The notes below the pieces were generated by a model. That model was not told where the DNA came from and did not search any database. It worked only from the letters and a program-made list of their open reading frames with translations. Below are positions 15,411 to 59,822 of a stretch of DNA of 64,000 nucleotides, one piece after another. Where the stretch lies: assembly GCA_017502865.1 (NCBI GenBank), contig JAFVUD010000005.1, positions 144,007 to 208,006 on the forward strand, in the 5' to 3' direction. Numbering within the stretch: position 1 is the first letter of the stretch; the number at the start of each line of letters is the position of its first letter. The DNA comes from Alphaproteobacteria bacterium. GTDB taxonomy: Bacteria > Pseudomonadota > Alphaproteobacteria > Rs-D84. Made by a program: the position numbers and the translations under genes.

Positions 15411-15438
15411 AAAAAACGCCCCATTCGGGGCATTTTTT
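15411..15438. terminator. bidirectional terminator between rnhA and 15437-16774
   Basis: AAAAAACGCCCC-ATTC-GGGGCATTTTTT. Confidence 0.8.
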
Positions 15439-37600: not shown

Positions 37601-40600
37601 GTGTGTAACCATCACCCCAATCGACATAGAACGTACCAGCCGCTGCGATATAGAATGAATAGCTATACGTATTGGTTGTAGTCAGTTCTAATGGCCAGTA
37701 GTCCAAGCATACCGGACCACCCCAACTTAATGGGACCTGGTCTTCTGAACCACATCTCATCCCTGTCAGGCCCACTGCACCTTCATACACCCCACCAATA
37801 TGGTCGGTTGTTGCATCTGGCCAGATATTATACAAATATTCACCGCCAGCACGCACAGTATTACCCGTCAAATTGCGGCAATTAGCGAACATATAGGCAA
37901 ACATATTTGTTGCCGCATTACCAGACAATGCCCCAATAAAGTTAGCAGGGATTTCGCCTGTCAAACCAGAACAGTTATAGAATGTCTGATAGAACATATA
38001 CTGTGCTGGTGTGCCGCTGATTCCTGCAAACAATGCACCACCAATACCCGACAATCTGTTACATCCATAGAATGTCTGATAGAACATATACGCACGTGGC
38101 TGCCCCGAAATACCGGCAAACAAGTCCGCTGGGATTTCACCGGATAAACCACTACAGCCATTGAACGTCCGATAGAACATATACGCACGTGGTTGCCCCG
38201 AAATACCTGCGAACAAGTCCGCTGGGATTTCATCATAGATATTATTTGCCCCATAGAACGTCTGATAGAAGCTTGGCTGGCTGCCATCAGCCAATGTTGG
38301 GAATATCGCACCCAAACTGCCCGACAGTTTTGTCAAAGAACCTGTATTGCTAAACGAAATCGTAGCCAATTCATCATCGGTATTATATGCCGTTGCCAAA
38401 CCGCCCATTTTAATCGTATATGTATTTGCACGGCGATACGAATGTGAATGACCTGTCCGTGATGCATCTGTCTTTTCGATTACATCAACCTTGCCATCGC
38501 CCCAACTGATATAGTATTTACCAGCCGCCGCCAAATAAACTGTCATCGAAGACACATTGGTTGTCGCCGTTTCAAATGCCCAATCAGAAAAATCAACATC
38601 CGAAACGTCTTCACATGCGGTCATATCTGCTGGGATATTGGCCACATCTTCCAACTGGGTATCACCACAATACATGGTCTTCATATACGATGGGTCCCAA
38701 ATATTGTACAGATACTGTTCACCTGTCTGGGCCGACGTGCCACTTAATGATGTGCAACGTCCAAACGTACCATAGAACATATCTGTTGCTGCTGTCCCTG
38801 AAATCCCCGCAAACAAGCCTGCTGGGATTTCGCCTGTCAATCCTGTACAGCCCCAGAATGTTTGTTCAAACATATATGGTGCCGGGGTGCCTTCAATACC
38901 TGCGAACAAGTCCGCTGGGATTGGGCCTTCTAACCCTGTACAATCTGCAAATGTACGTGTGAACATATCCTGGGCTGGTGCTCCCTTAATTCCACTGAAC
39001 AATGTTGCTGGAATTGTTCCGGTCAATCCTGAACAGCCTTCAAATGTCCCCATAAACATCCCATACGATGGGGCACCCTGGATTCTTGCGAACAATGTCG
39101 CTGGGATTGATCCTGTCAACCCTGAACAACCCTTGAATGTTTCACGGAACAGTTCAGCTGATGGCTGTGCATACAAATCTTCAAACAGATCTGCTGGGAT
39201 TGAACCTGTCAAGCCAGAACAACCCATGAATGTTTGATAGAACTTCTTGCTTTCTCCATCAATGCCGCCCATTGCCAACATATTTCTTGGGAACAATTGT
39301 TCTGGGATTTCACCCTTCAAATTCTTGCAGTTATAGAATGTTCTATAGAAGTTTGGCGATGGAATCAATACACCCACAACCGATGGCATAACTGGGAACA
39401 ATTCACGGAAAGACCCCTCAATCTTAGCCAAGTTATAGTTCGATTCAAAACTAATCGTTGGAACCGTGGCACCCCCAACATATCCTACCGCTTCACCTGA
39501 TATTTTGATTTTGTATTCACCCGCTTTGTCATACTTATGTGAAAATACCAGTTCATCTACACTATCATGCGTCACAGTGTCAAATGTACCATCACCCCAA
39601 TCAACACCGAAAACACCCGATGCATTCATACGGAATTCAAATGATGTCGTATCTGGTGTTGTTGTTGCGATAAACTTTGGTTCGCCCAGTCCTGTCTGGC
39701 CCAAACCACCCCAGTTTTCTGGGATTGTCGCATAATCATCCAACTTATTACTGTGCATAAATGAATATGTCAATGCATCTGGCCAGATTTCATACAAATA
39801 CTTACCACCCTTACCCTTAGCAGATGGCCCTGCCAAATCAGACATGCTAAAGAATGTATAGAAGAACATACCTAATTCTGCAGAACCTTCGATACCTGCA
39901 AACAGGCCATCCCCAATACCACTTAATCTATCATCTTCGATAAATGTAAATCCAAACATACCCAATGCTGGGGCCCCTTCAAGATTACGGAACAACCCAC
40001 CCGGGATTTCGCCAGACAATTGTGTGCAGCCCGCAAAAGTACCTAAGAAACAACCAACGCTTGGTGCACCCTTAACACCCTTGAACAAATCTTCTGGAAT
40101 TGTGCCAGACAAGCCAAAACTGGCCCCAAATGTACCTGCAAATGCCAATTCACCCGGTGCACCATTCAGGTTTCCAAACAAAGATTCTGGAATTGTTCCT
40201 GTCAAGCCTTCACCCTTAAAGATATTTACATCTGGGCCATTATTCACCAATTCAATTATGTCAATCCCACTGCCGGCAAATGTACCCAAATACTGTGCCG
40301 CCATTGGACGACCAGATATACCTGCAAACAATTTCGCTGGGATGCGACCTTCCAAATATGGCATAGCCGCAAAAGTCAATGCAAAAGCGGCTTCTTTTGC
40401 CTGGCCTTTTAAGCCTGAAAACAAAGTCGATGGCAATTCGCCCTTGAACCCGGATACCGCAAATGTGCCCAAGAACGCCCCACGTTCCGGTGCACCACGC
40501 AAATTAGCATACAATTTTGCTGGTATTGAACTTTCTACAAGTGGCGTTAACAAGAAAGTACCTGCATTCATCGCATATGATGGATGGCCGGTCAAACCTG

Positions 40601-41462
40601 CAAATAATTTTTCTGGAACAGATTTCAAACCAGAAAGCGCAAAAGTCCCCGTGAACATCAATGGGGATGGCTGACCATAAACACGGCTGAACAATCTTTC
40701 TGGAATAATACCATCCCAATTCATGGCCCCTGCGAAAGTCAGCAAGAAACTTGGGTTATCGCCATTTTCCAGCGTTGGGAAAACCGAACCCAAACTGCCA
40801 TCGATATGTGCAATACGATCTGAATCTGTTACAAAAGAAATGGTGATACCTTCTGGTGCAATCTGTAAATTATCAAACGCATGTTCATCAAAATCAACGA
40901 TAAAGCGTTGCAGGGAATTAATAATTGGGTCAACATCCATATATGCATAGCCTGTGGCACGGCCACCAAAGCGAACTACATATTTACCTGGTGTTGCATA
41001 ACTGTGGTTATATGGCATAAATTCTGTGTTATCACGCACAATTGTTTCAACCGTACCATCACCCCAGTCAACCATAAATGTCCCCGCAGCCCCCAGGATA
41101 AACCCAAACGATTCTGCATTTTCGGTGGTAGTAACCGAGAATGGCCATTCTTCATAGACCAGTTCATTAACCGCCTGTTCTGTGACTGTAATATCAGCAA
41201 TCTGATTCGTTGCATATTCACCGGCACCGTATCTTGATGTCACTTCGCCATTCAATATTTCATTGGCTACGTCAACCGCAGTCAGCAGATATTCCATATT
41301 TGCCACCTGGCGTGGATTACGCAACTTGGCATTATATGGCACTTCCACCCCGATACGATTCGCAATCATGTTATGTACATACTCTACATTTGCGATCTGT
41401 GCAGCATGCGCAGCAAATGCAAAAAATGCACCAAAAACAACGGTTAACAGTTTCTTTAACAT
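34650..41462 (-). CDS. giant secreted repeat protein made of five concatenated PKD-like + 30-aa-repeat family units
   Basis: 2270 aa from the ATG at 41462 (MLKKLLTVVFGAFFAFAAHA). Five WGDG...H.Y domains, dozens of LFAGI.GAPA..MF..TF..C..LT.IP repeats, and five YLY.IW terminal motifs. Terminators lie on both sides. Confidence 0.85.
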   Translation of the reverse strand: MLKKLLTVVFGAFFAFAAHAAQIANVEYVHNMIANRIGVEVPYNAKLRNPRQVANMEYLLTAVDVANEILNGEVTSRYGAGEYATNQIADITVTEQAVNELVYEEWPFSVTTTENAESFGFILGAAGTFMVDWGDGTVETIVRDNTEFMPYNHSYATPGKYVVRFGGRATGYAYMDVDPIINSLQRFIVDFDEHAFDNLQIAPEGITISFVTDSDRIAHIDGSLGSVFPTLENGDNPSFLLTFAGAMNWDGIIPERLFSRVYGQPSPLMFTGTFALSGLKSVPEKLFAGLTGHPSYAMNAGTFLLTPLVESSIPAKLYANLRGAPERGAFLGTFAVSGFKGELPSTLFSGLKGQAKEAAFALTFAAMPYLEGRIPAKLFAGISGRPMAAQYLGTFAGSGIDIIELVNNGPDVNIFKGEGLTGTIPESLFGNLNGAPGELAFAGTFGASFGLSGTIPEDLFKGVKGAPSVGCFLGTFAGCTQLSGEIPGGLFRNLEGAPALGMFGFTFIEDDRLSGIGDGLFAGIEGSAELGMFFYTFFSMSDLAGPSAKGKGGKYLYEIWPDALTYSFMHSNKLDDYATIPENWGGLGQTGLGEPKFIATTTPDTTSFEFRMNASGVFGVDWGDGTFDTVTHDSVDELVFSHKYDKAGEYKIKISGEAVGYVGGATVPTISFESNYNLAKIEGSFRELFPVMPSVVGVLIPSPNFYRTFYNCKNLKGEIPEQLFPRNMLAMGGIDGESKKFYQTFMGCSGLTGSIPADLFEDLYAQPSAELFRETFKGCSGLTGSIPATLFARIQGAPSYGMFMGTFEGCSGLTGTIPATLFSGIKGAPAQDMFTRTFADCTGLEGPIPADLFAGIEGTPAPYMFEQTFWGCTGLTGEIPAGLFAGISGTAATDMFYGTFGRCTSLSGTSAQTGEQYLYNIWDPSYMKTMYCGDTQLEDVANIPADMTACEDVSDVDFSDWAFETATTNVSSMTVYLAAAGKYYISWGDGKVDVIEKTDASRTGHSHSYRRANTYTIKMGGLATAYNTDDELATISFSNTGSLTKLSGSLGAIFPTLADGSQPSFYQTFYGANNIYDEIPADLFAGISGQPRAYMFYRTFNGCSGLSGEIPADLFAGISGQPRAYMFYQTFYGCNRLSGIGGALFAGISGTPAQYMFYQTFYNCSGLTGEIPANFIGALSGNAATNMFAYMFANCRNLTGNTVRAGGEYLYNIWPDATTDHIGGVYEGAVGLTGMRCGSEDQVPLSWGGPVCLDYWPLELTTTNTYSYSFYIAAAGTFYVDWGDGYTQVINKTDTYSTYYSHSYNKSGVYTVKLAGLATAYNTSYSTAAISFSTATAGVKGSLGEIFPTLSNGSQPSFYQTFYNCSSLTGEIPATLFSGISGTPRQYMFYRTFYNCYGLTGEIPAGLFAGIKGAPASYMFYQTFYNCSGLTGIGGPLFAGISGAPASYMFQQTFYNCSGLEEAELSGMFGTLNGAPASYMFYQTFFGCQNMKGDISNVFAGTLSGSATSNMFVQTFQGCSGLTGTSVKSGGKFLYEIWPNATSAQVGDMYTGCTGLTDNNCETGVMMPAIWGAQACVDDWAFEYTTTNTSDVTISLSAKGTFYVDWGDGSSSVIERTDTSLKSYNHMYAKSAAYNVKVAGLATAYSTNDKTATVKFTRVASVTGQLGDVFPTLADGSQPSFYQTFADASLKTVPADLFAGVKGAPRPYMFYQTFEGNYNLTEVPEGLFANISGAPVEHLFNGTFYGCSALRSVPEGLFASISGAPAESLFYQTFYGCYNLATLPEGLFASIKGAPAANMFKQTFYDCDRLTVVPAGLFAGISGAPASSMFEATFSNCNGLTTLPEGLFANVQGAPVQNMFKQTFQDCTSLKAIPSDLFAGISGAPAKYMFDSTFSGCSSLTAIPEELFAGVKGDAADYMLQNVFNNCSKLAAIPEGLFAGITGEPTKSMFKNAFAGTAIKSIPEGLFAGIKGAPETNMFQDTFNNCDNLVTVPAGLFASIKGAPAKYMFEGTFEGCDNLTTIPEDLFAGLSGKPAQYMFANTFNGCKKLTAVPEDLFAGISGVPASNMFDYTFSGCSSLKTVPAGLFAGITGKPASNMFMYTFASSGLTTIPAGLFAGISGAPATYMFEGTFSNCDGLTTIPAGLFAGIKGTPAQYMFNNTFNDCDNLTTIPENLFGGLSGTPAYSMFYRTFYSCDKLAAIPANLFGNISGSYASYMFYYTFAYCPALRGPSAKINGKYLYQIWSNPGWQYTYYNSTGLTDYSSIPSYWK

Positions 41463-41520
41463 ATTCCCACCTTTCTTTATGATAACCACTGTACTAAATC
41501 ATACGAAATCTACACAAGCA

Positions 41521-41550
41521 AAAAATTTAAACGCCCCGTTTGGGGCGTTT
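41521..41550 (-). terminator. terminator after rho
   Basis: AAACGCCCC-AAAC-GGGGCGTTT followed by AAATTTTT on the minus strand. Confidence 0.7.
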
Positions 41551-41553
41551 TAT

Positions 41554-42822
41554 TTATTGATTCATGGAACTGAAAAAGTCCGCATTTGTCTTGGTCAACC
41601 GCAATTTATCCAGCAAGAATTCCATCGCTTCCAACGTTCCCATTGGATTTATAATGCGACGCAAGACATACATCTTGGACAGATATTCTTTCCCGACCAG
41701 CAAATCTTCTTTACGTGTTCCAGATTTAGTAATATCAATCGCCGGATACACACGTTTATCAGACAATTTACGATCCAGGATAATTTCACTGTTCCCTGTA
41801 CCTTTAAATTCTTCAAAGATAACTTCGTCCATTTTCGACCCTGTATCCACCAACGCAGTTGCAATAATGGTCAATGAACCGCCACCTTCGATATTACGTG
41901 CCGCCCCAAAGAAGCGTTTTGGACGTTGCAACGCATACGCATCAACGCCACCGGTCAACACTTTACCACTGGATGGCACACATGTATTATATGCACGCCC
42001 CAAACGTGTAATAGAATCTAACAAGATAACAACATCCTGTCCTGCTTCGACCAAACGCTTGGCTTTTTCAATAACCATTTCGGCAACCTGAATATGTCGT
42101 GCCGCAGGTTCATCGAATGTAGATGATATAACTTCGCCTTTAACGCTGCGTTGCATATCCGTCACTTCTTCTGGACGTTCATCAATCAACAATACGATTA
42201 ATTTCACATCTGGATAGTTTGTTGCAATACTGTGTGCAATGTTTTGCAGCATAACTGTTTTACCGGTACGTGGTGGTGCCACAATCAGTGAACGTTGCCC
42301 TTTACCAGTTGGTGAAATCAAATCGATAACACGTGCCGACAAATTGCGACCTTTGTCCTTGTCATCTGGCACTTCCATTTTCAACTGTTCATCTGGATAC
42401 AGCGGTGTCATATCATCGAACGACACACGATGTTTCAACTTTTCTGGATTATCGCCGTTAACACGTTCAATTGTTTCCAACGCAAAATAACGTTCTGTTT
42501 CTGCGGCCGGTGCCTGAATCTGTCCTTCGACATAGTCACCCGTTTTCAACCCATACTTTTTAATCAAATTTGGTGACACATACAAATCATCTGGTCCCGC
42601 CAGATAATTAGATTCTGGTGCACGCAAGAATCCAAACCCATCCTGCATACGTTCCAGCACCCCGTCACCAATCAGTGTGACCTTTTTATCCGCAGCAAAC
42701 ACACGCATAACTGCAAAACGCAGTTGTTGCACATTTAATTGCGCCGGATTTTCAATACCCATATCTTCTGCCATTTTCAGCAGTTGCTGTGGCGATTTCG
42801 CCTTTAATTCATTTATATGCAT
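41554..42822 (-). CDS. rho: transcription termination factor Rho
   Basis: [16 protein letters not shown]-terminal domain, Walker A motif PPRTGKT, and RNA-binding and ATPase motifs. Start taken at the ATG at 42822. Confidence 0.95.
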
Positions 42823-42913
42823 AAATAATCCTTTTGTGGAGATTGGCACATGGAACCATGGCCATTTGATATGTATATTATAGACTAAATTGACAAAAAT
42901 GTCAAGTCCCCAA

Positions 42914-42937
42914 CAAAAAACCGCCATATTGGCGGTC
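42914..42937 (-). terminator. terminator after 42943-45027
   Basis: ACCGCC-AATA-TGGCGGT followed by TTTTTT on the minus strand. An identical copy lies at 45352-45375. Confidence 0.8.
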
Positions 42938-42942
42938 TTTTA

Positions 42943-45027
42943 TTACTTCCAGTTATCTGGGATATTCGCATAGTCTTTTAATCCCGTTGCGCCGTTATAT
43001 GTATTCGCATCCCCAGATGGTGTGAACACTTCATACAAGAATTTATCAGCCGTCGTAAATGTACCATCTTCATTTTCGGTCACAACCGTCATCTTGGCAG
43101 AATCACTGGCCAATTTGGTTGCATTGTTAAATGTATTACTGAACATTCCCGACACCCAATTACCCGTAATATTGCCAAATATAGGATGCCCACTGGTACC
43201 GGTTGCCGCATCATAACCAATATTTATCAGACCCGTACTGTCAGCAAATGTGCTATTAAACATATTCTGTGCTGGTTCGCCCGAAATTCCCGCAAACAAT
43301 CCCTTTGGAATATTTTTAATATTCCATGTTGTACTGAATGTGCTACTGAACATATTTTTAGCTGGTGCCCCAACAATCCCTGCAAACAAACCTTCTGGCA
43401 AATCACCTACATTATTCCAATGGAATGTTCCACTAAACATCCCCTCGGCCGGTTCACCACGAATCCCCGCAAACAATTTCGCTGGCACAGTATTCACACC
43501 AGAATCCTGGAATGTACCCTGGAACATATATTCCAACGGGCGCCCCTCAATCCCACGGACATAATTGCCATTGTCATCATATTCTGTGAACAGATTTTCT
43601 GGAATATTATTCCCCATTCCCCCGGTCTGACAGAACGTATACGCAAATGCACGTCCCATATTATAATGCCATGTTATACCCGAAAACAAATCTGCTGGAA
43701 TGGGTCCACCCAATCTGCGGCACTGCTGGAAAGTACCTTCGAACATCCCATATGCCCCTGGCCCCTTAATCCCAGCAAACAGTCCACTTGGCAACTTCCC
43801 TTGAATTCCCGAAAAACCAAATGTTCCATGGAACATCTTGTGTGCAGGTGCGCCTTCGATACCCGCAAACAATTCCGCCGGAATCGAGCCAGTCAGTCTA
43901 GTATGCTGACTCCAACAACTACCATCTGGTCTATCATCTGGTGCAGACAAACAGGCAAAAGTAGAATGGAACATCATTGGTTTTGGTGCCCCCTTGATGC
44001 CCGCAAAGAAATCTTTATCCAACGGTCCAATTAAATTACGTGCAGAATCAAATGTCCCATAGAACAAACCTGTTGTTGGTGCACCACTAATCTTTGCAAA
44101 CAATTTTGGTGGTATCTGCCCCGATAAACTGTCGCAATTTCTAAATGTATGCATAAACATACCTGTTGTCGGGCGGCCGCTGATACCCGCAAAGAAATCT
44201 TCTGGAATCGCCCCATCCAATTCATAACAACCATCAAACATTTCACGGAACATATATGCCTTGTCCGCTTGGCCTGTCAATCCGGTCAAGAAACCATCTG
44301 GAATTGGACCAATCAAATTCTTGCACCCTTTACAGAAACCATAAAAGCTGGGTTGACTGCCATCGGCCAATGTTGAAAAAACCGCACCCAATGAATTATA
44401 AATTTTATACAGGTTTTCTGGCGTGCCGATTTTAATAGATGGAATTACCCCACTAACTTCATCCGCCATCAGTGTAACGGCCCCTTCGACATAGCCAGCA
44501 CCACCGGTTGAATTATATTCAGTTGGTGTACCCGTTAATTTAATATAGTGTGCTTCGGCCGTATCATATGTATGTGAATATGTGACCTGGTCTGTGGTAT
44601 CCTGGGTAAATGTTTCGTTGGTACCATCACCCCATTTAATAGTAAATGTACCCTTGGCTGCGATTTTAATTTCAAAATATGTTGTATCGGTTGTTGTACG
44701 GAATGTCAAACCACGCACATCAATCAAATCAACAACTGCTTTATCCGTTGCCTCCTTATCCGCCGCCAGCATAGTTGCCAACGGATCTTCGGCATAGTCA
44801 CTGATATCAATACTGTTCACGGTCCAGTTTGTTTCATCCATCGCATGCAGCAGATATTTCATATTTGCCGCAGCCATGGTACTGCTGACCTCGTCATTAT
44901 ATGGTAAAAAGAATCCCCATTCGGCCTGAATAGCCTTGTGAATATAATCCAGGTTTGCGACCACTGCGGAATCGGCCGTCGCCACCACACCGCACGACAC
45001 CATCAACGCAAACAACAATTTTTTCAT
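42943..45027 (-). CDS. secreted PKD-like + 30-aa-repeat family protein (694 aa)
   Basis: Signal peptide, VANLDYIHKAI...ANMKYLLHAMDETN head, IKWGDG...YSHTY domain, LFAGI.G.P...MF..TF repeats, and C-terminus KFLYEVF...IPDNWK. Confidence 0.85.
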   Translation of the reverse strand: MKKLLFALMVSCGVVATADSAVVANLDYIHKAIQAEWGFFLPYNDEVSSTMAAANMKYLLHAMDETNWTVNSIDISDYAEDPLATMLAADKEATDKAVVDLIDVRGLTFRTTTDTTYFEIKIAAKGTFTIKWGDGTNETFTQDTTDQVTYSHTYDTAEAHYIKLTGTPTEYNSTGGAGYVEGAVTLMADEVSGVIPSIKIGTPENLYKIYNSLGAVFSTLADGSQPSFYGFCKGCKNLIGPIPDGFLTGLTGQADKAYMFREMFDGCYELDGAIPEDFFAGISGRPTTGMFMHTFRNCDSLSGQIPPKLFAKISGAPTTGLFYGTFDSARNLIGPLDKDFFAGIKGAPKPMMFHSTFACLSAPDDRPDGSCWSQHTRLTGSIPAELFAGIEGAPAHKMFHGTFGFSGIQGKLPSGLFAGIKGPGAYGMFEGTFQQCRRLGGPIPADLFSGITWHYNMGRAFAYTFCQTGGMGNNIPENLFTEYDDNGNYVRGIEGRPLEYMFQGTFQDSGVNTVPAKLFAGIRGEPAEGMFSGTFHWNNVGDLPEGLFAGIVGAPAKNMFSSTFSTTWNIKNIPKGLFAGISGEPAQNMFNSTFADSTGLINIGYDAATGTSGHPIFGNITGNWVSGMFSNTFNNATKLASDSAKMTVVTENEDGTFTTADKFLYEVFTPSGDANTYNGATGLKDYANIPDNWK

Positions 45028-45041
45028 TACAAAATCCTCTG

Positions 45042-45287
45042 CTATTCTTCTACATGTGCCACAGATTTTGGCAATGGTTGGGTTGCCACATTTAACGATC
45101 CTGTCACGTCGTACGTACCGGCCATGGTCTGATTGGCATTTTCGGAAACACTGACCTTGTCTTCATCAACATATTTACGTGTATTCGCATCCACTTCATC
45201 TACATAGTTTTGTGATGGAATATTCGGTGCCGCAATCGCCGCCCCTGACATCAACGCCAACACTGAAAAAACAAGGATTTTTTGCAT
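45042..45287 (-). CDS. small secreted protein, EYV-head / VxTxPLP-tail family
   Basis: MQKILVFSVLALMSGAAIAAPNIPSQNYVDEV...NQTMAGTYDVTGSLNVATQPLP. Lies 14 nt upstream of 42943-45027. Confidence 0.6.
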   Translation of the reverse strand: MQKILVFSVLALMSGAAIAAPNIPSQNYVDEVDANTRKYVDEDKVSVSENANQTMAGTYDVTGSLNVATQPLPKSVAHVEE

Positions 45288-45351
45288 TTTTCTTTCTCCT
45301 AACACACTATTATTGATAATAATTGTATCATAAAACACCCCGCCCCGCAAA

Positions 45352-45375
45352 TAAAAAACCGCCATATTGGCGGTC
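45352..45375 (-). terminator. terminator after 45381-47483
   Basis: Same sequence as 42914-42937. Confidence 0.8.
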
Positions 45376-45380
45376 TTTTG

Positions 45381-47483
45381 TTATTTCCACAATTCTGGGA
45401 TATTCGCATAGTCTGTTAATCCCGTTGCACCGTTATATGTATTTGCATCCCCAGATGGTGTGAACACTTCATACAAATACTTTATCGCCGAAGACGTCGT
45501 TCCATCTTCATTTTCAGTTATAACCGTCATCTTGGCAGAATCACTGGCCAATTTGGTTGCGTTACTAAACGTATTGCTGAACATTCCCGACACCCAACTC
45601 CCCGTAATATTACCAAATATTGGATGCCCACTGGTACCGGTTGCCGCATCATAACCAATATCTACCAACGATTTATTATTCGAAAACGTGCCATTAAACA
45701 TATTCTTGGCCGCTGGTCCAGAAATCTTGGCAAACAACCCCTTTGGAATTTTTGTTGTGCTTGACCAAGCATCACCGGCACTAAATGTACCACTGAACAT
45801 AGACTCTGCCGGTTCCCCTTCGATACCATCAAAGAACCCTTCGGGAATATCACCAACACTATTCCAGTGGAACGTGTTGGCAAACATAGCTTTGGCCGGT
45901 TTTCCACGAATACCTGCGAACAATTTCGCTGGCAAATTACTTGCACCACTATCCGTCCATGTACCATTGAACATTTCTGCGGACGGTGCCCCCTCTATCC
46001 CACGGACATAATTACCGTCTTCGTCATATTCTGTGAACAGGTTTTCTGGAATATTTCCGCCCGCCCATGTCTGACAGAACGTCAACGCAAACGCACGTGA
46101 CATATCCGGCGACCATGTTATCCCTGCAAAGAAATCTTCGGGAATTTGTCCTCCCATACCACGGGCCTGTTGGAATGTGGCTTCAAACATACCGGGCGCC
46201 CCAGGTCCCTTGATGCCTGCAAACAATCCTGCTGGATACCCACCTGTATGCCCCGAAAATGCAAATGTAGAATGGAACATTTTGTACGCAGGGGCCCCTT
46301 CAATTTTACCAAACAATTTTGCTGGAATTGGGTTTTTCATCGACATTTTTGACCAACATTCACCATCTGGCAAATTAACACATCCAAATGTCCCCAGGAA
46401 CATCATCGGTTTTGGTGCACCACCAATATTTGCAAACAACTGGTCCGACAAAGCACCCGTCAACCCACGTGCCCCGTTAAATGTTTCATAGAACAATGCC
46501 AATGTAACATCACCGTTCAAACCACCAAACACGTCGGCCGGAATCCCACCCGTCAATGATTTACAGTTATAAAATGTCTGCATAAACTGGGCAGTTGTTG
46601 GACGACCTGTTATGCCCGCAAACATACCTGCTGGGATTTCACCATTTAACTTATAACAATTCAAGAACATACGACGAAATTGGTACGCTTTATCCGATTC
46701 GCCCGTAATCCCAGCCAACAAATTTGCTGGAATCGGCCCAACCAGGTTCGTACATCCTTCACAAAATGTATTAAAGCTTGGCTGACTGCCATCAGCCAAC
46801 GTTGGGAAAACCGAACCCAACGAATTATAAATCTTATACAAATTGGCTGGTGTAGCAATTTTAATAGTTGGCGTCGCCCCACTAACTTCACCTAAACTTT
46901 CATCTACACCACCATCTGAATATTGAACAATAATATCTCCGCCGGTCGAATTATACTCGGTCGCCTTGCCTAACAATTTGATATAGTGTGCTTCGGCCTT
47001 ATCATACGTATGCGAATACGTTTTTTGTTCTGTGGTATCGTGGGTAAAAGTTTCATTAACGCCGTCGCCCCATTTAATTGTAAATGTACCCTTGGCTGCG
47101 ATTTTAATTGAAAATTCCGTTGTATCAGTCGTCGTACGGAATGTTAAACCACGCACATCAATCAGGTCAACAACTGCGACATCTGTCGCATTGGTGTCTG
47201 CGGCACGCATTGTCGCCAATGGATCTTCGGCATAGTCACTGATGTCTTCACTGTTCACGGTCCAGTTTGTTTCGTCCATCGCATGCAACAGATATTTCAT
47301 ATTTGCCGCCGCCATTGTACTGCGAACCTCTTCATTCCATGGCAAAAAGAATCCCCACTCGGCCTGGATTGCGTTATGAATATATTCCAAATTTGCGATT
47401 TTGCCGGACCAAGCGGCCGAAATCACCATAAAACAAGACAAAAAAGCGACACATAACTTTTTAATCACGCTAAAATCCCCCAT
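45381..47483 (-). CDS. secreted PKD-like + 30-aa-repeat family protein (700 aa), tandem paralog of 42943-45027
   Basis: Same architecture. N- and C-terminal ~150 aa are nearly identical to the neighbour and the middle has diverged. C-terminus is ...IPELWK. Confidence 0.85.
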   Translation of the reverse strand: MGDFSVIKKLCVAFLSCFMVISAAWSGKIANLEYIHNAIQAEWGFFLPWNEEVRSTMAAANMKYLLHAMDETNWTVNSEDISDYAEDPLATMRAADTNATDVAVVDLIDVRGLTFRTTTDTTEFSIKIAAKGTFTIKWGDGVNETFTHDTTEQKTYSHTYDKAEAHYIKLLGKATEYNSTGGDIIVQYSDGGVDESLGEVSGATPTIKIATPANLYKIYNSLGSVFPTLADGSQPSFNTFCEGCTNLVGPIPANLLAGITGESDKAYQFRRMFLNCYKLNGEIPAGMFAGITGRPTTAQFMQTFYNCKSLTGGIPADVFGGLNGDVTLALFYETFNGARGLTGALSDQLFANIGGAPKPMMFLGTFGCVNLPDGECWSKMSMKNPIPAKLFGKIEGAPAYKMFHSTFAFSGHTGGYPAGLFAGIKGPGAPGMFEATFQQARGMGGQIPEDFFAGITWSPDMSRAFALTFCQTWAGGNIPENLFTEYDEDGNYVRGIEGAPSAEMFNGTWTDSGASNLPAKLFAGIRGKPAKAMFANTFHWNSVGDIPEGFFDGIEGEPAESMFSGTFSAGDAWSSTTKIPKGLFAKISGPAAKNMFNGTFSNNKSLVDIGYDAATGTSGHPIFGNITGSWVSGMFSNTFSNATKLASDSAKMTVITENEDGTTSSAIKYLYEVFTPSGDANTYNGATGLTDYANIPELWK

Positions 47484-47880: not shown

Positions 47881-48333
47881 ATGGCAGGCAGTATTAATAA
47901 AGTGACATTGGTCGGCAACATTGGCGGCGATCCCCAGGTTCGCAACATGCCCAGCGGTCAAAAGGTTGTAAATTTCAACCTGGCAACATCCGAACGTTGG
48001 CGTGACCGTGCAACCGGCGAAATGAAAGAACAAACCGAATGGCATCGTATTGTTATCTTTAACCCAAATTTGGCAGATGTTGCCGAACGCATGTTGCAGA
48101 AAGGCACAAAATTATACATCGAAGGTTCATTAAAAACCCGCAAATGGCAAAATCAACAGGGCGTTGACGTTTACACAACCGAAGTTGTATTGAACCCATT
48201 CGCCGGTCAAATGGTAATCTTGTCCGGGTCCAAGGGTGCCGGTGACAGCGAATATAACGCCGCCCCAACACCCGCATCGGCCCCACGTGAAGAAATTTCC
48301 GTTGCCGACATCAACGACGATATTCCATTCTAA
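47881..48333 (+). CDS. ssb: single-stranded DNA-binding protein
   Basis: [21 protein letters not shown]...[11 protein letters not shown]-fold and acidic C-terminal tip DDIPF. A terminator follows. Confidence 0.9.
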
Positions 48334-48355
48334 AAAGAAAAATATATCACACAAA

Positions 48356-48380
48356 AACCGCCATTTCGGCGGTTTTTTTT
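48356..48380 (+). terminator. terminator after ssb
   Basis: AACCGCC-ATTTC-GGCGGTT followed by T8. Confidence 0.85.
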
Positions 48381-48482
48381 CTGCCGACACAATCCCCCCA
48401 GGTCACAATTCCCTGTTCGCCCCATTTACCTGGGTTCCACGGTCAAGCCGTGGAATGACAAAGATTGATAAATTTCGAAATT

Positions 48483-48778
48483 AAATTAGAACGATTTAGA
48501 TGTGGAACGGTCCCGGCAACGTAGTGCACAAACCGCTACATGAGTTGTCGGGACCGCCCAACCCCTTGCCTGTTAAAAATAAATTAGAATGATTTAGATG
48601 TGGAACGGTCCCGGCAACGTAGTGTACAAACGCTACATGAGTTGTCGGGCCACCCAACCCCTTGCCTGTTAAAAATAAATTAGAATGATTTAGATGTGGA
48701 ACGGTCCCGGCAACGTAGTGTACAAACGCTACATGAGTTGTCGGGACCGCCCACAGATGAATTATTATAATTTATTTT
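48483..48778 (+). repeat. tandem array A: three ~97-nt hairpin-containing repeat units
   Basis: Units start at 48483, 48581 and 48677. The conserved hairpin is CCCGGCAAC-GTAGTG-TACAAA-CGCTAC-ATGA-GTTGTCGGG. The last unit has a distinct AT-rich tail. Confidence 0.9.
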
Positions 48779-51700
48779 TTAGAAGCGGTAAGAACCTGAG
48801 ACTTTAATATTATGCAACTGGATGGCATCGTTGTATTGATATCTGTAATCAACACCAATTTGAATGCCGGTTGCGGAAATCAGTTCAAAACCACCACCAA
48901 TATTTGCCCACAATGGATCAATATCCAATGCATAGTCGGTGAACGAATGGGCCGGACCAAATTTATATTGAACCTGGTCTGGGGCACCCAGAACATCATA
49001 TTCGACACCAATCGATGCATATGGTCTGATTTGGAACCATGCTGTTGGATAGATGCGTTTCTGGGCCGTTAATGTGTACCCAGGGGTCAACATCAAATAG
49101 CCATCTGATTCCATATTCATGTAATCGCCACTGCCGGCGGTTTCATCAACACTGAAACCAAAATTATAACCAACACGTGCATACAGATTTCCAACGATAT
49201 ACTGGTTCAACCAATCGTGCATCAACCCCCATTCAGATGTCAATGCCAACGCCATACCATCACCATCGATTGTATCCATGAAATTCATGTTTCTGTCTGT
49301 ATCTAACATATGGATATCCAAGAACGCATTTCCATACGCACGCACAGAATTAGTCAATGTTTTAGCCAAATAACCGCCCAGGCCGATATTTGTATCTGTG
49401 ACGGACACAGAAACATTTCCTTGTTCTGTGATGGCACCATAACTTAAATCCATAGAATCTGAATTATCGCTGGACATATGTGAAACACGACCTGTCAACC
49501 CCAGAATCAGTGTTTCAGATTCCTGCCAGTCAAATCCACCGGCAACACTGAAACGATTTCCACCAACACGTTTGTTATCTGTCACATTCTGGCGGAACAT
49601 ACCATAGTCAACATCAACCCATGCTTTTTTCAAACTGCGGTTTCTGTTCCAGATAAATTCATCCATCATGCGATCTTCGAAATCACGGAACGATGTATGT
49701 TCATTCAACATAACTGCACCCGCAATTTGTTCGATTTCACGTGGCTGAACCAATCTGCTGAATCGTGCCAATGGTGCACCTTCGGCATTGGCAACATAGT
49801 GTTCCATACGATTGTACAATTCATTTGCCAATTTAGACATATCTGTCCCTTCGAACAACAATGGAATCACTTCAATTGGCGTACTGTTAAAGAATCCCTG
49901 ATTAACCAATTGACCATCCAACAGATCGTCCAACGCACCGGCCGCCATATATTCACCATCTGTATGATCTGGTTCACGGCCAACAATTGGCTGGATACGC
50001 ATATTTTCAATCAAAACAGGGCCACCAAAGCGTGGATCAAACACGACATACAAACTGTCATTTTCACCATTTGCATCCGCATCACGAACCGAGATATACG
50101 CCGGCAATTCTTCGCCCGATTTATTATTCGCATCAATCGCATCCAGATAGTTAAAGCATTTTGAACCATCTGCATTACAGAACATAACTTCCAGATTGCG
50201 AACCTTGGCCAATGCATCAAATTCTTCGATACCATCTTTGGCGTTTAACAACCAAATCGCAGTACCCTGGTCAACGGCATCAAATATATTAATACCGATT
50301 TGTGAATCCGCCAACTGAACTTCTTTGTTACCCAAATTCAGCCCAGAATCATATACTTTACCCGATATAAATTTGCCATTAACCGAAATCATTGGTTCTG
50401 CATCGGCTGCATTTGTGATATCACCCAGTGTATCATCTTCGGCCAGGCTGACGGTTGCCCAATAATTCTTGGCACTGGAATTCATTGTGGTACCATCTGC
50501 ATATTTCAAGATTGCAACATTCAATCGGCTGTTTTCATCAAATGTATAATTACCACCAATACTCATTTGTTCCAGACCGATAAAGTCAACCCCACCTGAA
50601 ACATCACCACCAACCGACACATCCATCCAGTTTGCATATGGCGACGCAACAAATGCTAAATCAACTGCATCTATGCTGCCAGAAACATCAATATCACTGC
50701 TGTTCACAACCATTGTCCCAGATTTCTGGTCAATCGCCCCAACATTCATATTAGATGTATTTATAACATAATCAGATGCCGCCACATTTACATCACGACT
50801 GGCCAATGTACCTGCATAATTTTGATATAATGTACCATCGGTTGTAAATGGTGTTGCCAAATCCAATCCAGCCCCAGACAACTGAATCATACCATCGTTC
50901 ATGGCCAATGAATTCATTGTTATAAACCCATTACCCGAACCAATATACAACGTACCATTATTCGCAACATCTGCGAAATCAGCAGATTCCTGGGCAAATA
51001 TTGCCAAAGAACCGCTGTTTTCCAAATTCTGCGACGCAAACGATTTCGCATTTACCATCACGCCGGCACCATCTGCCACAGAAACATTACCAACAACATT
51101 GAATAAATCTGTAATGTTATATGAAACCGTATTTTCATCTGCGACAAAATTACCACCAATGTTCATACTGGCCGCCTGAACACTTGATTCATCGGCTGTC
51201 AAATTCAGCATACCATTTTTAGCAGTACCCTGGTTCAAATCGCCTGCAACGCTAATATCGCCACCGACGATTGTGCGTTCCGCATCAATATTTGCCCCAC
51301 CCCCAGACACTGTCAAACCATATGAAACATCGAATTGTTTTGCATCAACCGACACTAAACCACCCGTTGATGTAATTGAATTCGCAGACACATTGTTGGC
51401 ATTTGCTGTAAACGCACCACTGTTTGTCACATTTTCAACAGACACCGCATTTACATTCCCCTGGCCTAACAAAGTTGTCAAACCTGTATTTGTAATATCC
51501 TGGGCGGTTATCATTGTACCCGATGCATACAGCGATCCACCAACCGTTGTATCATTTTTGATATCAACCAATTTATTCGCCACCAGGTTCAATTCACCAC
51601 CTGCATCAATCAAGCCAGAAACATTGATATTATTCGCAGATTTCAATGTTAACCCGTCACGTGTTGCCGCCATAACTGTAATACCACCGGCAACATCAAT

Positions 51701-54088
51701 ATCCTGATTTGCCCCGGTTGATTGCAATGTCATACCGTCTGTACCAATTATCGACAGCCCCCGTGTTGGATTCAAACTGCTGTCATACCAGATACCATTT
51801 TTAATATTAATACCGCCCTGGTCTGCAACAACAAATTGACCATACAGATTAATCAAACCATCTTGTTCAACCAGCGATGCAACATTTGCCCCCGCGTTAT
51901 AGATTTCAACAGTACCACCATTTTGTGCAACAACATCACCTGTCACATCCAGTGTCACATCCTCTACCTCTGGAATATACATATCATAGGTTGTCGGCGC
52001 ACCCGCATCTGGAATTTTATATATAAACGCAACCTGCCCCTGGCCCGATGCTACAACATCACCACCCACGGTCATACCGGCTGCAGAAAATCCCATTTTT
52101 CGAACATTACTGGCATCTGTTGCGGTAATATCACCATCAACATTGATTGTATTATCAGATGCCAAAACAAAACCTTGGACACCCTTGGCTGCGACATTTA
52201 CATCACCTGCCGCCCCTGTTGTTGCAGATGTTGCTGTGATATTACCAGCAATTTCAACACTGCCTGCAACATTAACCGTGTTCGTATTGCCGCCAATATT
52301 CAGCACACCACCCGTCACAGTCAAATCACCCGAACCTGTTAAATAACGGTCGTCTTCTGCGATTGCAAACTGACCGATTAAGGCATCAATGTTTGTTGTA
52401 CCACCCTGAACATCCAGACCACCCATTGTGATTGGCCCTTCGCCTAAATCTGAACCCTTGATGGTGGTAGAACCATTTTTATTTATAACATTCCCTAAAA
52501 TTGCGATATTACGCCCTTCGATTAATGTAGAACCACTGTTATTGTTCACATTTCCCACAACCCCAACGGATCCATATTCATCTGTATATGCCACGACACG
52601 CAAATTACCGCCATCATTTACCAGATTACCCCCCGACACCGTTGGTTCAGACGCATTATCCTCTTGCAGCATTTGCCCCAACATAATCGTTTCTGCATTC
52701 AATGTTGTATTTCCAGAATTCGAAACATTTTCATCGACATACAAATACGAAGACGCCGTCAAATGTGCGGTTGCATCTTGGGCTGTGGTCAAAGATTTAA
52801 TTGCAATTTCACCATACACACTGTTGCTGTCGTTATATGGCTGAATTGAACCCGCAACGGCATCATTATTCACTTCGGCCACCATATTCAGTGTACCACC
52901 CGATGCATAAACGTCTTGGGCCCAGATATCACCAGCCTTGATATTCATGATTGCATTTTTATTATTTGCCCCATTTTGAATATCCAAAACTATCAGTTCG
53001 CCACGTGTCACATTCAAATCGAACTGTTTTGCATCGTTCGACATCATAGCAAACACTTGGTCTTCCGTAGTATTCCCCCAATAAATCTGCCCTGTGGTCA
53101 AACTGAATGTATTATCAGTCCCCATTGTGCTTAAATCCACACCATTGGCGAAATAAGTTTCCCCAGAAACATTGATATTCACATTACCGCCATTGACAAA
53201 AGACGCATTATTATCGTCACCACCATTTAATTGCAGCGATCCTGTATTAATAACTAACGTCCCATTTGCCGAATCGTTTTTGACTGTGCCCCCAACATTA
53301 ATCGAACTGTTGACGGCATTAAATGTCAAACTGTCACCTGAATTTTCCAGATTACCATCAATATAAACAATCGATCCATTGTTAACATTGATTTCCATAT
53401 CACCGGCATTATTCTGGATATTCCCCACCGTTTCATCATCGATACTGCCGTCCAACGCTTCTTCCTGTGGGCCACGCATATCCAACGAACCCGCATTAAC
53501 AACAAACTTACCCGTACTGTCGTTTTGTAATTTTTCTGCTTCCAGCGTATCTGTCGCAGTGATTGTTGTATTACCTGTACCTGTTGCCGCCAAATCTTGA
53601 ACTGAGATATATTCCGCCCCCAGTGTCAAATCCCCATTACTGGTCACATGCTGTGCATACAACCCCACAATTCCATCATCAATCGTCAGCGTCCCCAGGT
53701 TTTCGATTGCACCAAAATACGCTTCTGAAATCTGTGCATTGTCTGTTGCATTTGCATGAATGCCCAACGTACGACCATTTGCCACCGTCAGTGCCCCCAG
53801 CACTTCGATATTACCGCTGCTTAAAATCGTGTACGAAGAATTCGTATCTGGCCCGACATAGACCCAGCCATCTGGACTGGCCGCAGGAATTTGTGCCCCA
53901 ACAGACAATCCGTGTGTTACCGTCATACCACCGGTCCCCACAACAAAACCACTACCACCGGTAAAATGATATACGTCTGTCGTCGCATTCAACCCATCAA
54001 ATGTTGCATTATTTGGATAAACTAACGGTTCGGCCACCGCACCAAAAGGCGCCAAGCAGCACATCAGTGACATAATTTTCTTGAACAT
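48779..54088 (-). CDS. large autotransporter (beta-helical passenger plus C-terminal barrel)
   Basis: 1769 aa from the ATG at 54088 (MFKKIMSLMCCLAPFGAVA). The passenger is G/N/T/V-rich and repetitive. The C-terminal ~280 aa show alternating beta-strands ending in ...SGSYRF. Confidence 0.8.
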   Translation of the reverse strand: MFKKIMSLMCCLAPFGAVAEPLVYPNNATFDGLNATTDVYHFTGGSGFVVGTGGMTVTHGLSVGAQIPAASPDGWVYVGPDTNSSYTILSSGNIEVLGALTVANGRTLGIHANATDNAQISEAYFGAIENLGTLTIDDGIVGLYAQHVTSNGDLTLGAEYISVQDLAATGTGNTTITATDTLEAEKLQNDSTGKFVVNAGSLDMRGPQEEALDGSIDDETVGNIQNNAGDMEINVNNGSIVYIDGNLENSGDSLTFNAVNSSINVGGTVKNDSANGTLVINTGSLQLNGGDDNNASFVNGGNVNINVSGETYFANGVDLSTMGTDNTFSLTTGQIYWGNTTEDQVFAMMSNDAKQFDLNVTRGELIVLDIQNGANNKNAIMNIKAGDIWAQDVYASGGTLNMVAEVNNDAVAGSIQPYNDSNSVYGEIAIKSLTTAQDATAHLTASSYLYVDENVSNSGNTTLNAETIMLGQMLQEDNASEPTVSGGNLVNDGGNLRVVAYTDEYGSVGVVGNVNNNSGSTLIEGRNIAILGNVINKNGSTTIKGSDLGEGPITMGGLDVQGGTTNIDALIGQFAIAEDDRYLTGSGDLTVTGGVLNIGGNTNTVNVAGSVEIAGNITATSATTGAAGDVNVAAKGVQGFVLASDNTINVDGDITATDASNVRKMGFSAAGMTVGGDVVASGQGQVAFIYKIPDAGAPTTYDMYIPEVEDVTLDVTGDVVAQNGGTVEIYNAGANVASLVEQDGLINLYGQFVVADQGGINIKNGIWYDSSLNPTRGLSIIGTDGMTLQSTGANQDIDVAGGITVMAATRDGLTLKSANNINVSGLIDAGGELNLVANKLVDIKNDTTVGGSLYASGTMITAQDITNTGLTTLLGQGNVNAVSVENVTNSGAFTANANNVSANSITSTGGLVSVDAKQFDVSYGLTVSGGGANIDAERTIVGGDISVAGDLNQGTAKNGMLNLTADESSVQAASMNIGGNFVADENTVSYNITDLFNVVGNVSVADGAGVMVNAKSFASQNLENSGSLAIFAQESADFADVANNGTLYIGSGNGFITMNSLAMNDGMIQLSGAGLDLATPFTTDGTLYQNYAGTLASRDVNVAASDYVINTSNMNVGAIDQKSGTMVVNSSDIDVSGSIDAVDLAFVASPYANWMDVSVGGDVSGGVDFIGLEQMSIGGNYTFDENSRLNVAILKYADGTTMNSSAKNYWATVSLAEDDTLGDITNAADAEPMISVNGKFISGKVYDSGLNLGNKEVQLADSQIGINIFDAVDQGTAIWLLNAKDGIEEFDALAKVRNLEVMFCNADGSKCFNYLDAIDANNKSGEELPAYISVRDADANGENDSLYVVFDPRFGGPVLIENMRIQPIVGREPDHTDGEYMAAGALDDLLDGQLVNQGFFNSTPIEVIPLLFEGTDMSKLANELYNRMEHYVANAEGAPLARFSRLVQPREIEQIAGAVMLNEHTSFRDFEDRMMDEFIWNRNRSLKKAWVDVDYGMFRQNVTDNKRVGGNRFSVAGGFDWQESETLILGLTGRVSHMSSDNSDSMDLSYGAITEQGNVSVSVTDTNIGLGGYLAKTLTNSVRAYGNAFLDIHMLDTDRNMNFMDTIDGDGMALALTSEWGLMHDWLNQYIVGNLYARVGYNFGFSVDETAGSGDYMNMESDGYLMLTPGYTLTAQKRIYPTAWFQIRPYASIGVEYDVLGAPDQVQYKFGPAHSFTDYALDIDPLWANIGGGFELISATGIQIGVDYRYQYNDAIQLHNIKVSGSYRF

Positions 54089-54199
54089 TTTTTTCTTTTT
54101 CTGTTTTATTTCCAATCCGATTGTGTTTATATTATACCGCAAAATGAATTTAATGCAAAGGTAAACTGTGCATAAACTCATTATTATTTATCAAAGTAA

Positions 54200-58868: not shown

Positions 58869-58958
58869 GATTTTTGCGTCTTCCTTCTTTTTACCCTATT
58901 CTATCATAACACGAATTTATTCACAAGTACATTTTCCATATCTTTGCCAAACAAAAAT

Positions 58959-59255
58959 AAATTAGAATGATTTAGATGTGAAACGGTCCCGGCAACGTAG
59001 TGTACAAATCGCTACATGAGTTGTCGGGCCACCCACCCCCTTGCCTGTTAAAAATGAATTAGAATGATTTAGATAAAAGAAAATCGGGAATCGTAGTGTA
59101 CACGACGCTACATAAGATTCCCAGACAACCACACCCCCTTGCCTGTTAAAAATAAATTAGAATGATTTAGATGTGGAACGGTCCCGACAACGTAGTGTAC
59201 AAACGCTACATGAGTTGTCGGGACCGCCCACAGATGAATTATTATAATTTATTTT
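58959..59255 (+). repeat. tandem array B: three ~97-nt units of the same element
   Basis: Units start at 58959, 59056 and 59154. The third unit is 104/105 identical to the third unit of array A. The middle unit has a swapped outer stem. Confidence 0.9.
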
Positions 59256-59822
59256 TTATTCGTCGTCTGGAACTTCTTCCTCCTCCTCATCCTCTTCTTC
59301 AACGGCATTCAAATCAATTTCTTTTGGAATACCCAAAATATCTTCGATTTTGTCAGATGCAGAATCCAAATCCATTTTATGCAGAACTGCAAATTCCTGG
59401 GCCATACGTTCCAACGCACGCAAATATAATTGCCGGGCCGAAAATGTCATTGTATCTGCCGCTGTGCGACGTTGCAGGTCACGCACCACTTCGGCCAATT
59501 TCATTGGGTCACCCGAATTAATGTTTTCTTCGTACTGGGCGGCACGACGGGCCCAAATCATACGTTTTACACCGGCTTTACCCTTGGCTGATGCGATGGC
59601 CTCATCCATTTTTTTAGTTGTCGTCAACGGACGCAGCCCTGAAATTTCTGCACGTTCGATTGGCACACGCAATGTCATATGATTGCGTTCAAAATCGATA
59701 ACCAACATCTTTATTTTCTGGCCTGCGACGGTCTGTTCTTCGATTCGCAACAGTTTACCAACACCCTGGGTTGGATAAACGACATACTGTCCGGCTTTAA
59801 AATCTAACTTTTTACTTGGCAT
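59256..59822 (-). CDS. carD: CarD/CdnL family RNA-polymerase-binding transcription regulator
   Basis: FKAGQYVVYPTQGVGKLLRIEEQTVAGQKIKMLVIDFERNHMTLRVPIERAE, with an acidic C-terminal tail. Confidence 0.85.
   Translation of the reverse strand: MPSKKLDFKAGQYVVYPTQGVGKLLRIEEQTVAGQKIKMLVIDFERNHMTLRVPIERAEISGLRPLTTTKKMDEAIASAKGKAGVKRMIWARRAAQYEENINSGDPMKLAEVVRDLQRRTAADTMTFSARQLYLRALERMAQEFAVLHKMDLDSASDKIEDILGIPKEIDLNAVEEEDEEEEEVPDDE

Follow-up and report, generated by a model that had tools for sequence, protein, structure and literature searches.

The window, by which we mean the whole stretch of 64,000 nt analysed here, contains 48 ORFs, 33 of which lie on the minus strand, and its plus strand has a GC skew of -0.21. 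Between ssb and a minus-strand ORF of 1800 aa lies a head-to-tail array of three repeat units on the plus strand (array A; Table 1), which Tandem Repeats Finder delimits at 48478-48753 with a period of 96, 2.8 copies, 95% matches and a score of 508. The units begin at 48478, 48576 and 48672 and therefore have periods of 98 and 96 nt; the shorter period is due to a 1-nt deletion in the 3' half of the unit 2 stem. The original prediction had described three tandem units starting at 48483, 48581 and 48677, which gives identical periods, and both this reading and the hairpin it drew in unit 2 (48610-48649) are recovered here, the latter with a covariance model derived from 111 members of the family. 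One 18-mer of the hairpin (GGTCCCGGCAACGTAGTG) is present in five copies in the window versus 0.02 expected by chance, and the two copies outside array A belong to a second three-unit array on the plus strand (array B, 58954-59255), which adjoins carD. A search of the 64 kb with the covariance model returns exactly six units, three in each array, and nothing more.

Table 1. Units of the two repeat arrays and the genes and signals next to them.
Feature	Position	Strand	Remarks
Array A, unit 1	48478-48575	+	internal type; 54.6 bits
Array A, unit 2	48576-48671	+	internal type; core hairpin 48610-48649, 37.3 bits
Array A, unit 3	48672-48778	+	complete 107-nt element; 113.4 bits on the plus strand, 53.8 on the minus strand
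Array B, unit 1	58954-59051	+	internal type; stem class as in array A
Array B, unit 2	59052-59148	+	other stem class, AAAAGAAAATCGGGAATC ... GATTCCC; 3' half of stem truncated
Array B, unit 3	59149-59255	+	complete 107-nt element; right arm 59232-59255; 115.1 bits
ssb	47881-48333	+	Pfam SSB, E = 3e-34; convergent with the 1800-aa ORF
Terminator of ssb	48353-48380	+	canonical; A-run, CCGCC/GGCGG stem, run of 8 T
1800-aa ORF	48779-54181	-	gene of array A; stop TAA (48781-48779) abuts the right arm
carD	59256-59822	-	gene of array B; Pfam CarD_TRCF_RID and CarD_C; stop (59258-59256) abuts the right arm
Promoter-like site	58898-58926	-	TTGTGA-17-TAGAAT with TG before it; consensus match only

The last unit of each array is a complete imperfect palindrome of ~107 nt, composed of a left arm (AAAATAAATTAGAATGATTTAGAT), a GC-rich stem of ~18 bp, a tip (CGTAGTGTACAAACGCTACATGAG), the complementary stem half and a right arm (AGATGAATTATTATAATTTATTTT) that pairs with the left one. 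Internal units keep the left arm and the stem-loop and carry a C-rich linker (CCCAACCCCTTGCCTGTTA) where the right arm would be; unit 1 of array A, for example, runs from its left arm AAATTAAATTAGAACGATTTAGAT through a GC-rich stem-loop directly into this linker. In unit 3 of array A the left arm (48672-48695) is followed by the variable stem, the conserved tip and the right arm (48755-48778), the long hairpin is recovered by folding, and the unit is 98% identical to positions 59132-59258 at array B. The middle unit of array B is of a different class (GGGAATC paired with GATTCCC), and the arrays are therefore class mosaics. The terminal unit of array A ends in a T-run (TTTATTTTTT, 48770-48779) and the internal units have none on the plus strand, so the earlier statement that no canonical T-run follows the hairpin is right for the internal units and wrong for the terminal one. 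Array A as a whole folds to -119.6 kcal/mol on the plus strand (z = -9.3 against shuffled sequences) and to -97.7 kcal/mol on the minus strand (z = -5.9).

The units are contiguous and 95% alike along their whole length, with no spacers between them, in agreement with the original prediction that this is not a CRISPR array. Its exclusion of a peptide gene is likewise sound: short ORFs of 24-37 aa exist and none is conserved, because their frame changes from unit to unit and they run across the hypervariable stem. Rfam 15, run over the whole window at the gathering threshold, reports two tRNAs only and no family for the repeats, and a permissive Rfam scan of array A gives only sub-threshold generic hairpin matches. 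A type III toxin-antitoxin RNA array (ToxI-like), in which a toxin gene directly follows the tandem repeat on its strand, was rejected, both arrays being followed on the plus strand by the 3' end of the convergent gene, and so was a phage origin, for which a viral contig collection yields three chance matches to the 18-mer and none to the tip motif.

An exact-match scan with AATTAGAAYGATTTAGAT over one genome per species matched at least 117 stretches. Among the matches listed, 104 of 117 stretches hold true copies (209 units in all), and of the 13 without a core match 12 are chance occurrences in other taxa and L056 is a contig of Enterousia. The family is present in at least 43 species-level MAGs from animal guts, labelled Candidatus Enterousia or 'Alphaproteobacteria bacterium'; they represent the order Rs-D84, whose genomes measure 0.75-1.0 Mb and have a coding density of ~0.90 (PMC12306168). 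The element is single in 71 cases and otherwise forms direct arrays of two to five units, among the matches listed. When 111 complete elements are aligned (A1), conservation across species exceeds 90% in the arms and the tip, and the middle stem falls into discrete, fully complementary classes, such as GTGGAACGGTCCCGAYRRY, AAAAACAAATCGGGMATC, ATGGGATGGGGGCGACAWC and RCAGTGCCGGCAAY; covariation extends to a second arm subfamily, in which AAATAAAAGATAATGGTATAGAT pairs with AGATATGCCATTAGATTTTATTT. A structure of 42 pairs placed on A1 has 94.6% of its cells paired versus ~40% for slid partners, and 26 of the 42 pairs are changed on both sides, across 651 cells, values that none of 500 shuffles matches. 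The hairpin is therefore real, with the pairing test reading the same for RNA as for DNA. Chimeric elements with stem halves from different classes are present at L010:5916-6022 and other loci, and in one of them (GGGGCCGGCAAC ... GTTGCCCGATTTG) pairing is confined to GGCAAC/GTTGCC; such stem halves suggest that copies recombined at the conserved tip. A literature search found no paper describing this repeat family, which is lineage-specific and resembles REP, REPIN and ERIC in kind while being unrelated to them in sequence.

Contigs encoding an identical SSB protein carry two array alleles. One (L138) has three units and is identical to the window over 445 nt; the other (L139) has one complete unit between the ssb terminator and the stop of a 1802-aa ORF. 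The first 12 nt of this single unit are like unit 1 and the remainder like unit 3, a junction that matches deletion by recombination between units, and the presence of one unit there versus three in the window means that the internal units are dispensable. The original prediction that copy number should expand and contract between strains thus holds, and array length, the only kind of inter-strain polymorphism seen in the family, can serve as a strain marker. The contig L140 ends inside array A, and in the closest relatives (CarD 97% identical) four of four contigs (L118-L121) break inside the right arm just past carD; metagenome assemblies of this group are therefore broken up by the repeats.

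The relation to genes was scored with opposite-strand ORFs of at least 80 codons that run into the right arm, and whole arrays were counted if flanked by 330 nt or more on both sides. In 107 of 137 complete units among the matches listed, such an ORF enters the right arm and has its stop within ~20 nt of the hairpin base; 97 of these 107 stops are TAA, located at or inside the element and often the element's own TAA. At the array level, again among the matches listed, an opposite-strand ORF ends at the right arm in 86 of 92 cases. In 28 of the 86 a convergent ORF ends at the left arm as well, and an ORF at the left arm alone is seen in none of the 92; the six arrays outside the rule are truncated detections. 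By this rule array A goes with the 1800-aa ORF and array B with carD. The tie to ssb drawn by the original prediction is accordingly incidental, as ssb ends at its own terminator, which by its sequence can be used in both directions, and the array abuts the stop of the minus-strand ORF. A Pfam search with the 1800-aa ORF gave no match; its product ends in ...SGSYRF, with a C-terminal Phe resembling that of outer-membrane proteins, and the earlier label 'autotransporter' is putative. Genes that bear the element recurrently across species include efp (at least 19 loci), secB, a secretin and an AddB-like nuclease, and further ones, named by their C-terminal sequences only, are yebC, ftsK, trxB, fabF, clpB, rpsK and outer-membrane proteins. 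At the orthologous efp site both the stem class and the number of units differ between species.

About half of the 48 ORFs in the window are followed by a canonical GC-rich hairpin and T-run starting 0-21 nt past the stop, and many of these terminators are common to both directions between convergent genes. For the 1800-aa ORF and carD, the two array-bearing genes, the same scan of the window found no canonical terminator. Convergent partner genes at many other loci keep a canonical terminator upstream of the left arm, and family-free relatives have an ordinary terminator after carD, with its stem starting ~8-27 nt past the stop. The family was undetected in thirteen loci of 2.4-20.6 kb (seven of ~20 kb) from distant Rs-D84 lineages (CarD ~85-92% identical), and among the loci examined the carD site is occupied only in the lineage of the window. 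The element is thus found just downstream of the stop, at the end of the transcription unit, and the family occupies the terminator position of majority-strand genes. The original prediction had also set aside a simple intrinsic terminator; this was too strong, as the element sits at the terminator position and its complete unit consists of a hairpin followed by a plus-strand T-run.

The orientation of the element follows GC skew, the skew of the locus being negative on the element's plus strand in 98 of 102 arrays among the matches listed. The majority gene strand and GC skew are therefore confounders of orientation, and a constraint at the level of DNA or replication could be responsible instead. 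Convergent intergenic regions are enriched for the element (43/81 versus 105/440, among the matches listed), a comparison that does not discriminate because the background contains operon-internal junctions. The remaining 38 of the 81, also among the matches listed, are tandem gene contexts without an obvious source of plus-strand transcription.

The two strands of the element differ in folding. Of 131 distinct complete elements among the matches listed, 121 fold more stably on the plus strand; the difference averages -10.8 kcal/mol when RNA parameters are used and -4.4 with those for DNA (-26.6 versus -22.2 kcal/mol). At columns 19-99, 23-93 and 50-67 of A1, G.U pairs give way in other elements to G-C or A-U and hardly ever to A.C. 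There is also a conserved tandem G.A/A.G (AGAU opposite AGAU), and a further G.A in the arm. Sporadic mismatches are symmetric, with 83 G.T versus 69 A.C in the variable stem, and one pair near the tip is found in both states (U.G 89, U-A 8, C.A 8 and C-G 1). The strand-specific wobble evidence of the original prediction is therefore general as a plus-strand folding bias, and narrow in its basis, which comes down to three or four fixed, inherited positions plus the G.A pairs; the comparison of wobbles with C-A mismatches that it had proposed as a check gives a mixed answer, biased at the fixed positions and even-handed at the sporadic ones. Of its two wobbles, the G in CCCGGCAAC represents a local A-to-G change, as unit 3 of array B and many relatives have CCCGACAAC and a perfect pair. 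The other, GTAGTG opposite CGCTAC, is probably in the wrong register: this apical pairing leaves the variants GATGTG..TGATAC and ATAGTG..ACATAC uncompensated, and the alignment favours GUGUA/UACAU, which is invariant and itself contains a fixed G.U. Mutation bias was rejected as a source of the G.T excess, because the GC skew of the element's plus strand (+0.20) is opposite to the local background (-0.18 to -0.21) and the asymmetry runs against local composition.

When the last 9 nt are withheld as if engaged in an RNA:DNA hybrid, the lower stem retains a mean of -10.9 kcal/mol on the plus strand versus -4.8 on the minus strand, and the element of array A gives -11.0 versus -2.4 kcal/mol. On these computed energies the complete unit is a plausible hairpin-plus-U-tract terminator for a plus-strand polymerase heading towards the gene's 3' end, and is predicted to be a poor canonical terminator for the gene's own transcript, in which only the GC-rich upper hairpin would be stable.

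Array A represents a local three-unit expansion of a family of ~107-nt imperfect palindromes, and we propose that the complete, gene-adjacent unit acts as a terminator-like insulating hairpin whose well-formed direction faces incoming transcription, and which would also form a 3' hairpin on the gene's mRNA. We give this reading a probability of about one half. The analysis establishes how the element is built, that it belongs to a family, where and in which orientation it lies, that its stem covaries and that its copy number varies; termination itself and the strand that matters are inferred. On the plus strand the helix is predicted to be uninterrupted up to the run UUUAUUUU(UU), so that a polymerase nearing the gene's 3' end from outside, whether from a convergent gene or as antisense transcription, should stop. 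In the gene's own transcript the GC-rich upper hairpin, the part expected to be stable, would protect or define the mRNA 3' end. Internal units, lacking the right arm, would be dispensable by-products of recombination between copies.

The proposed insulating hairpin resembles a bidirectional intrinsic terminator in lying directly past the stop and in its order of A-run, hairpin and T-run, and its outer sequences (AAAATAAA ... TTTATTTT) are similar to those flanking the window's canonical terminators, such as AATAAAATCCCC...GGGGATTTTATT. It differs in its stem of ~50 bp, in the sequence conservation of its copies and in an asymmetric stability that favours the strand antisense to the gene. Against the terminator reading, the design is non-canonical: a canonical terminator has its GC-rich stem directly before the U-tract, whereas here an AU-rich lower stem of ~24 bp intervenes, and the GC-rich stem is separated from the start of the T-run by ~15 nt in the complete element. 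Conservation of the arms and the tip above 90% is not needed for a terminator and suggests a trans-acting factor or a copying mechanism. The contig L139 with the identical SSB protein also encodes the termination factor Rho (L139:1-399), and Rho-dependent termination is therefore available in the lineage.

The same position at gene ends would suit a regulator that works only in the gene's own transcript, where the hairpin would modulate translation termination or mRNA decay, possibly by offering RNase III a long duplex to cleave or by stalling ribosomes near the stop, and the plus-strand features would be irrelevant. In E. coli, ribosomes have been reported to stall where a REP sequence lies close to a stop codon. 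Both the position and the orientation of the element are absolutely tied to the upstream stop, the gene's strand is the sole strand certain to be transcribed, and the GC-rich stem begins ~24 nt past the stop, outside a terminating ribosome. However, it is the gene-sense fold that is the weaker one in 121 of the 131 elements among the matches listed, the fixed non-Watson-Crick positions would be A.C or C.U mismatches on the gene's strand, and no theme unites the host genes, which are housekeeping genes of diverse kinds. We regard a role confined to this transcript as improbable.

The folding bias would also fit a functional plus-strand RNA co-directional with ssb, as the original prediction had it, which could be an independent tandem small RNA or structured non-coding RNA. 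The greater stability of the plus strand, the fixed G.U pairs and the conserved tandem G.A/A.G are in line with such an RNA, and an asymmetric GUA/GA loop below the tip may, in our own reading of the sequence, resemble a bulged-G module. The functional transcript claimed for the plus strand nevertheless lacks a conserved promoter: the sequences before the left arm are several unrelated linker families or the end of another gene. As promoters of individual units only weak consensus matches (TTGCCA/T-16-AATGAT) were seen and rejected, as was TTGATA-16-TAGAAC (TAGAAT in L139) before unit 1 of array A, from which the start would fall inside the left arm. Moreover, ssb has a terminator of its own, the sister strain L139 dispenses with the internal units, sporadic mismatches have no plus-strand bias, no Rfam family matches, and an RNA gene would not have to lie on a convergent gene's stop every time, as the element does in 86 of 86 cases among the matches listed. 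A hairpin repeat with a plus-strand folding bias is thus present, there is no evidence for an independent RNA gene, and we consider such a gene highly improbable.

Among known repeats, REPINs are multi-copy, extragenic and made of conserved inverted ends around a non-conserved middle that always forms a hairpin; REP sequences and REPINs occur in clusters and mosaics, persist within lineages and have flanking A/T runs suggested to attenuate transcription (PMC3337134; PMC3116915). The family described here is likewise multi-copy and extragenic, with conserved inverted ends flanking a variable, hairpin-forming middle, and it persists in a lineage and occurs in clusters and mosaics, as REPINs, REPs and BIMEs do. 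It differs from REPs and REPINs in having no sequence similarity to them, in arms that are not small palindromes and in an additional conserved tip, as well as in arrays of direct repeats with strict orientation and contact with a gene's stop codon. REPs and BIMEs are recognised as imperfect palindromes of ~20-40 nt, often with a GTAG head, that form clusters of alternating orientation; the present element is ~107 nt long and always direct, and GTAG is present in its tip, but within the helix region. A REPIN system has a single-copy gene for its cognate RAYT (a Y1 transposase), usually with the repeats on both sides of it. No RAYT was detected in the DNA of this family, and its host genome is reduced to 0.75-1.0 Mb (PMC12306168). 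The search was a tblastn with E. coli RayT as a single query, which gave no match at E < 1 in 1.11 Mb (the window and 140 loci), covering part of each genome and the flanks of ~120 arrays.

These resemblances raise the alternative that the element is a selfish or domesticated mobile palindrome, REPIN/RAYT-like or derived from IS200/IS605. The arms and tip would then be sites for a single-strand DNA transposase, the better-folding strand would be the DNA strand that matters, the fixed orientation would come from replication direction, and any terminator effect would be secondary. Conservation of the arms and tip goes far beyond the needs of pairing and the middle is variable yet complementary, as in REPINs (PMC3337134); the family is absent from related Rs-D84 lineages at the thirteen loci, the carD site being filled only in the window's lineage among the loci examined. 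Stem classes are shuffled between orthologous sites, orientation follows GC skew as described, and the folding asymmetry persists with the DNA parameters. What makes a mobile palindrome unlikely in our view is that the RayT search was negative over the DNA covered, that no target-site duplication is evident, that the genes beside the elements are housekeeping genes in reduced genomes (PMC12306168) and that identical orthologous sites such as efp are filled across many species. A rule based on replication alone also predicts left arms against lagging-strand genes, of which there are none among the matches listed. As a miniature inverted-repeat element the unit has inverted ends of 24 nt, and no duplication is recognisable in the A/T-rich flanks.

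ERIC and Correia/NEMIS elements are imperfect palindromes of ~100-150 bp in transcribed intergenic regions, whose long RNA hairpins can affect mRNA 3' ends and stability; they insert at TA in either orientation and are conserved over their whole length. The present family shares with them an imperfect palindrome on the ~100-bp scale and a long RNA hairpin, and differs in its hypervariable stem with discrete classes, its single orientation and the lack of an evident target duplication. Integron attC sites are imperfect palindromes of ~60-140 nt directly past an ORF whose folding strand is antisense to that ORF and, in chromosomal integrons, lies on the leading-strand template. The element is similarly a post-ORF imperfect palindrome that folds on the antisense strand. 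An attC identity was rejected all the same: there are no RYYYAAC / GTTRRRY core sites at the element ends, no integrase was seen, and the hosts are scattered housekeeping genes (efp, secB, carD) rather than a cassette array.

It is doubtful, though conceivable, that the element is a recognised, strand-specific module rather than a passive hairpin. Such a module may be a dedicated terminator or insulator that faces outward from majority-strand 3' ends and blocks head-on antisense transcription, or it may be a structured-RNA or single-strand DNA ligand for some putative protein. The arms, the tandem G.A and the GUA/GA loop may in that case be binding determinants, with the stem classes carrying specificity. 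Repeats are rare in reduced genomes of ~0.9 Mb, which suggests that a family locked in position and orientation is probably doing something. With its simple design of invariant arms and tip and a swappable stem, the family offers a clean natural system in which to study the recruitment, copying and shuffling of terminator-like hairpins. The fold that favours the antisense strand leads to a testable idea, namely that some hairpins at gene ends exist mainly against incoming antisense transcription.

The window has several other features of note. Between the ssb terminator and array A there is a perfect 8-bp hairpin (TTCCACGG-TCAAG-CCGTGGAA, 48436-48456), which the sister strain L139 shares apart from a single change in the loop. 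Very large minus-strand ORFs at 34650-47483 and 15437-16774, one of them of 2279 aa, contain periodic repeats of 90/93 nt (30/31 aa); the ORFs at 42943-45027 and 45381-47483 are paralogues 2438 nt apart with near-identical terminators (AGACCGCCAATATGGCGGTTT). Beyond array B in the direction of carD begins the next minus-strand gene (57411-58868). Its start codon is preceded by a ribosome-binding site and by the promoter-like site, which lies just past array B in the reading direction and is a candidate promoter for this gene. This gene, a 485-aa ORF without a Pfam match, carries a poly-G tract of 15 G (poly-C on the coding strand) at 58803-58817, 52-66 nt into the ORF, and the tract makes it a candidate for a phase-variable gene switched by slipped-strand mispairing.
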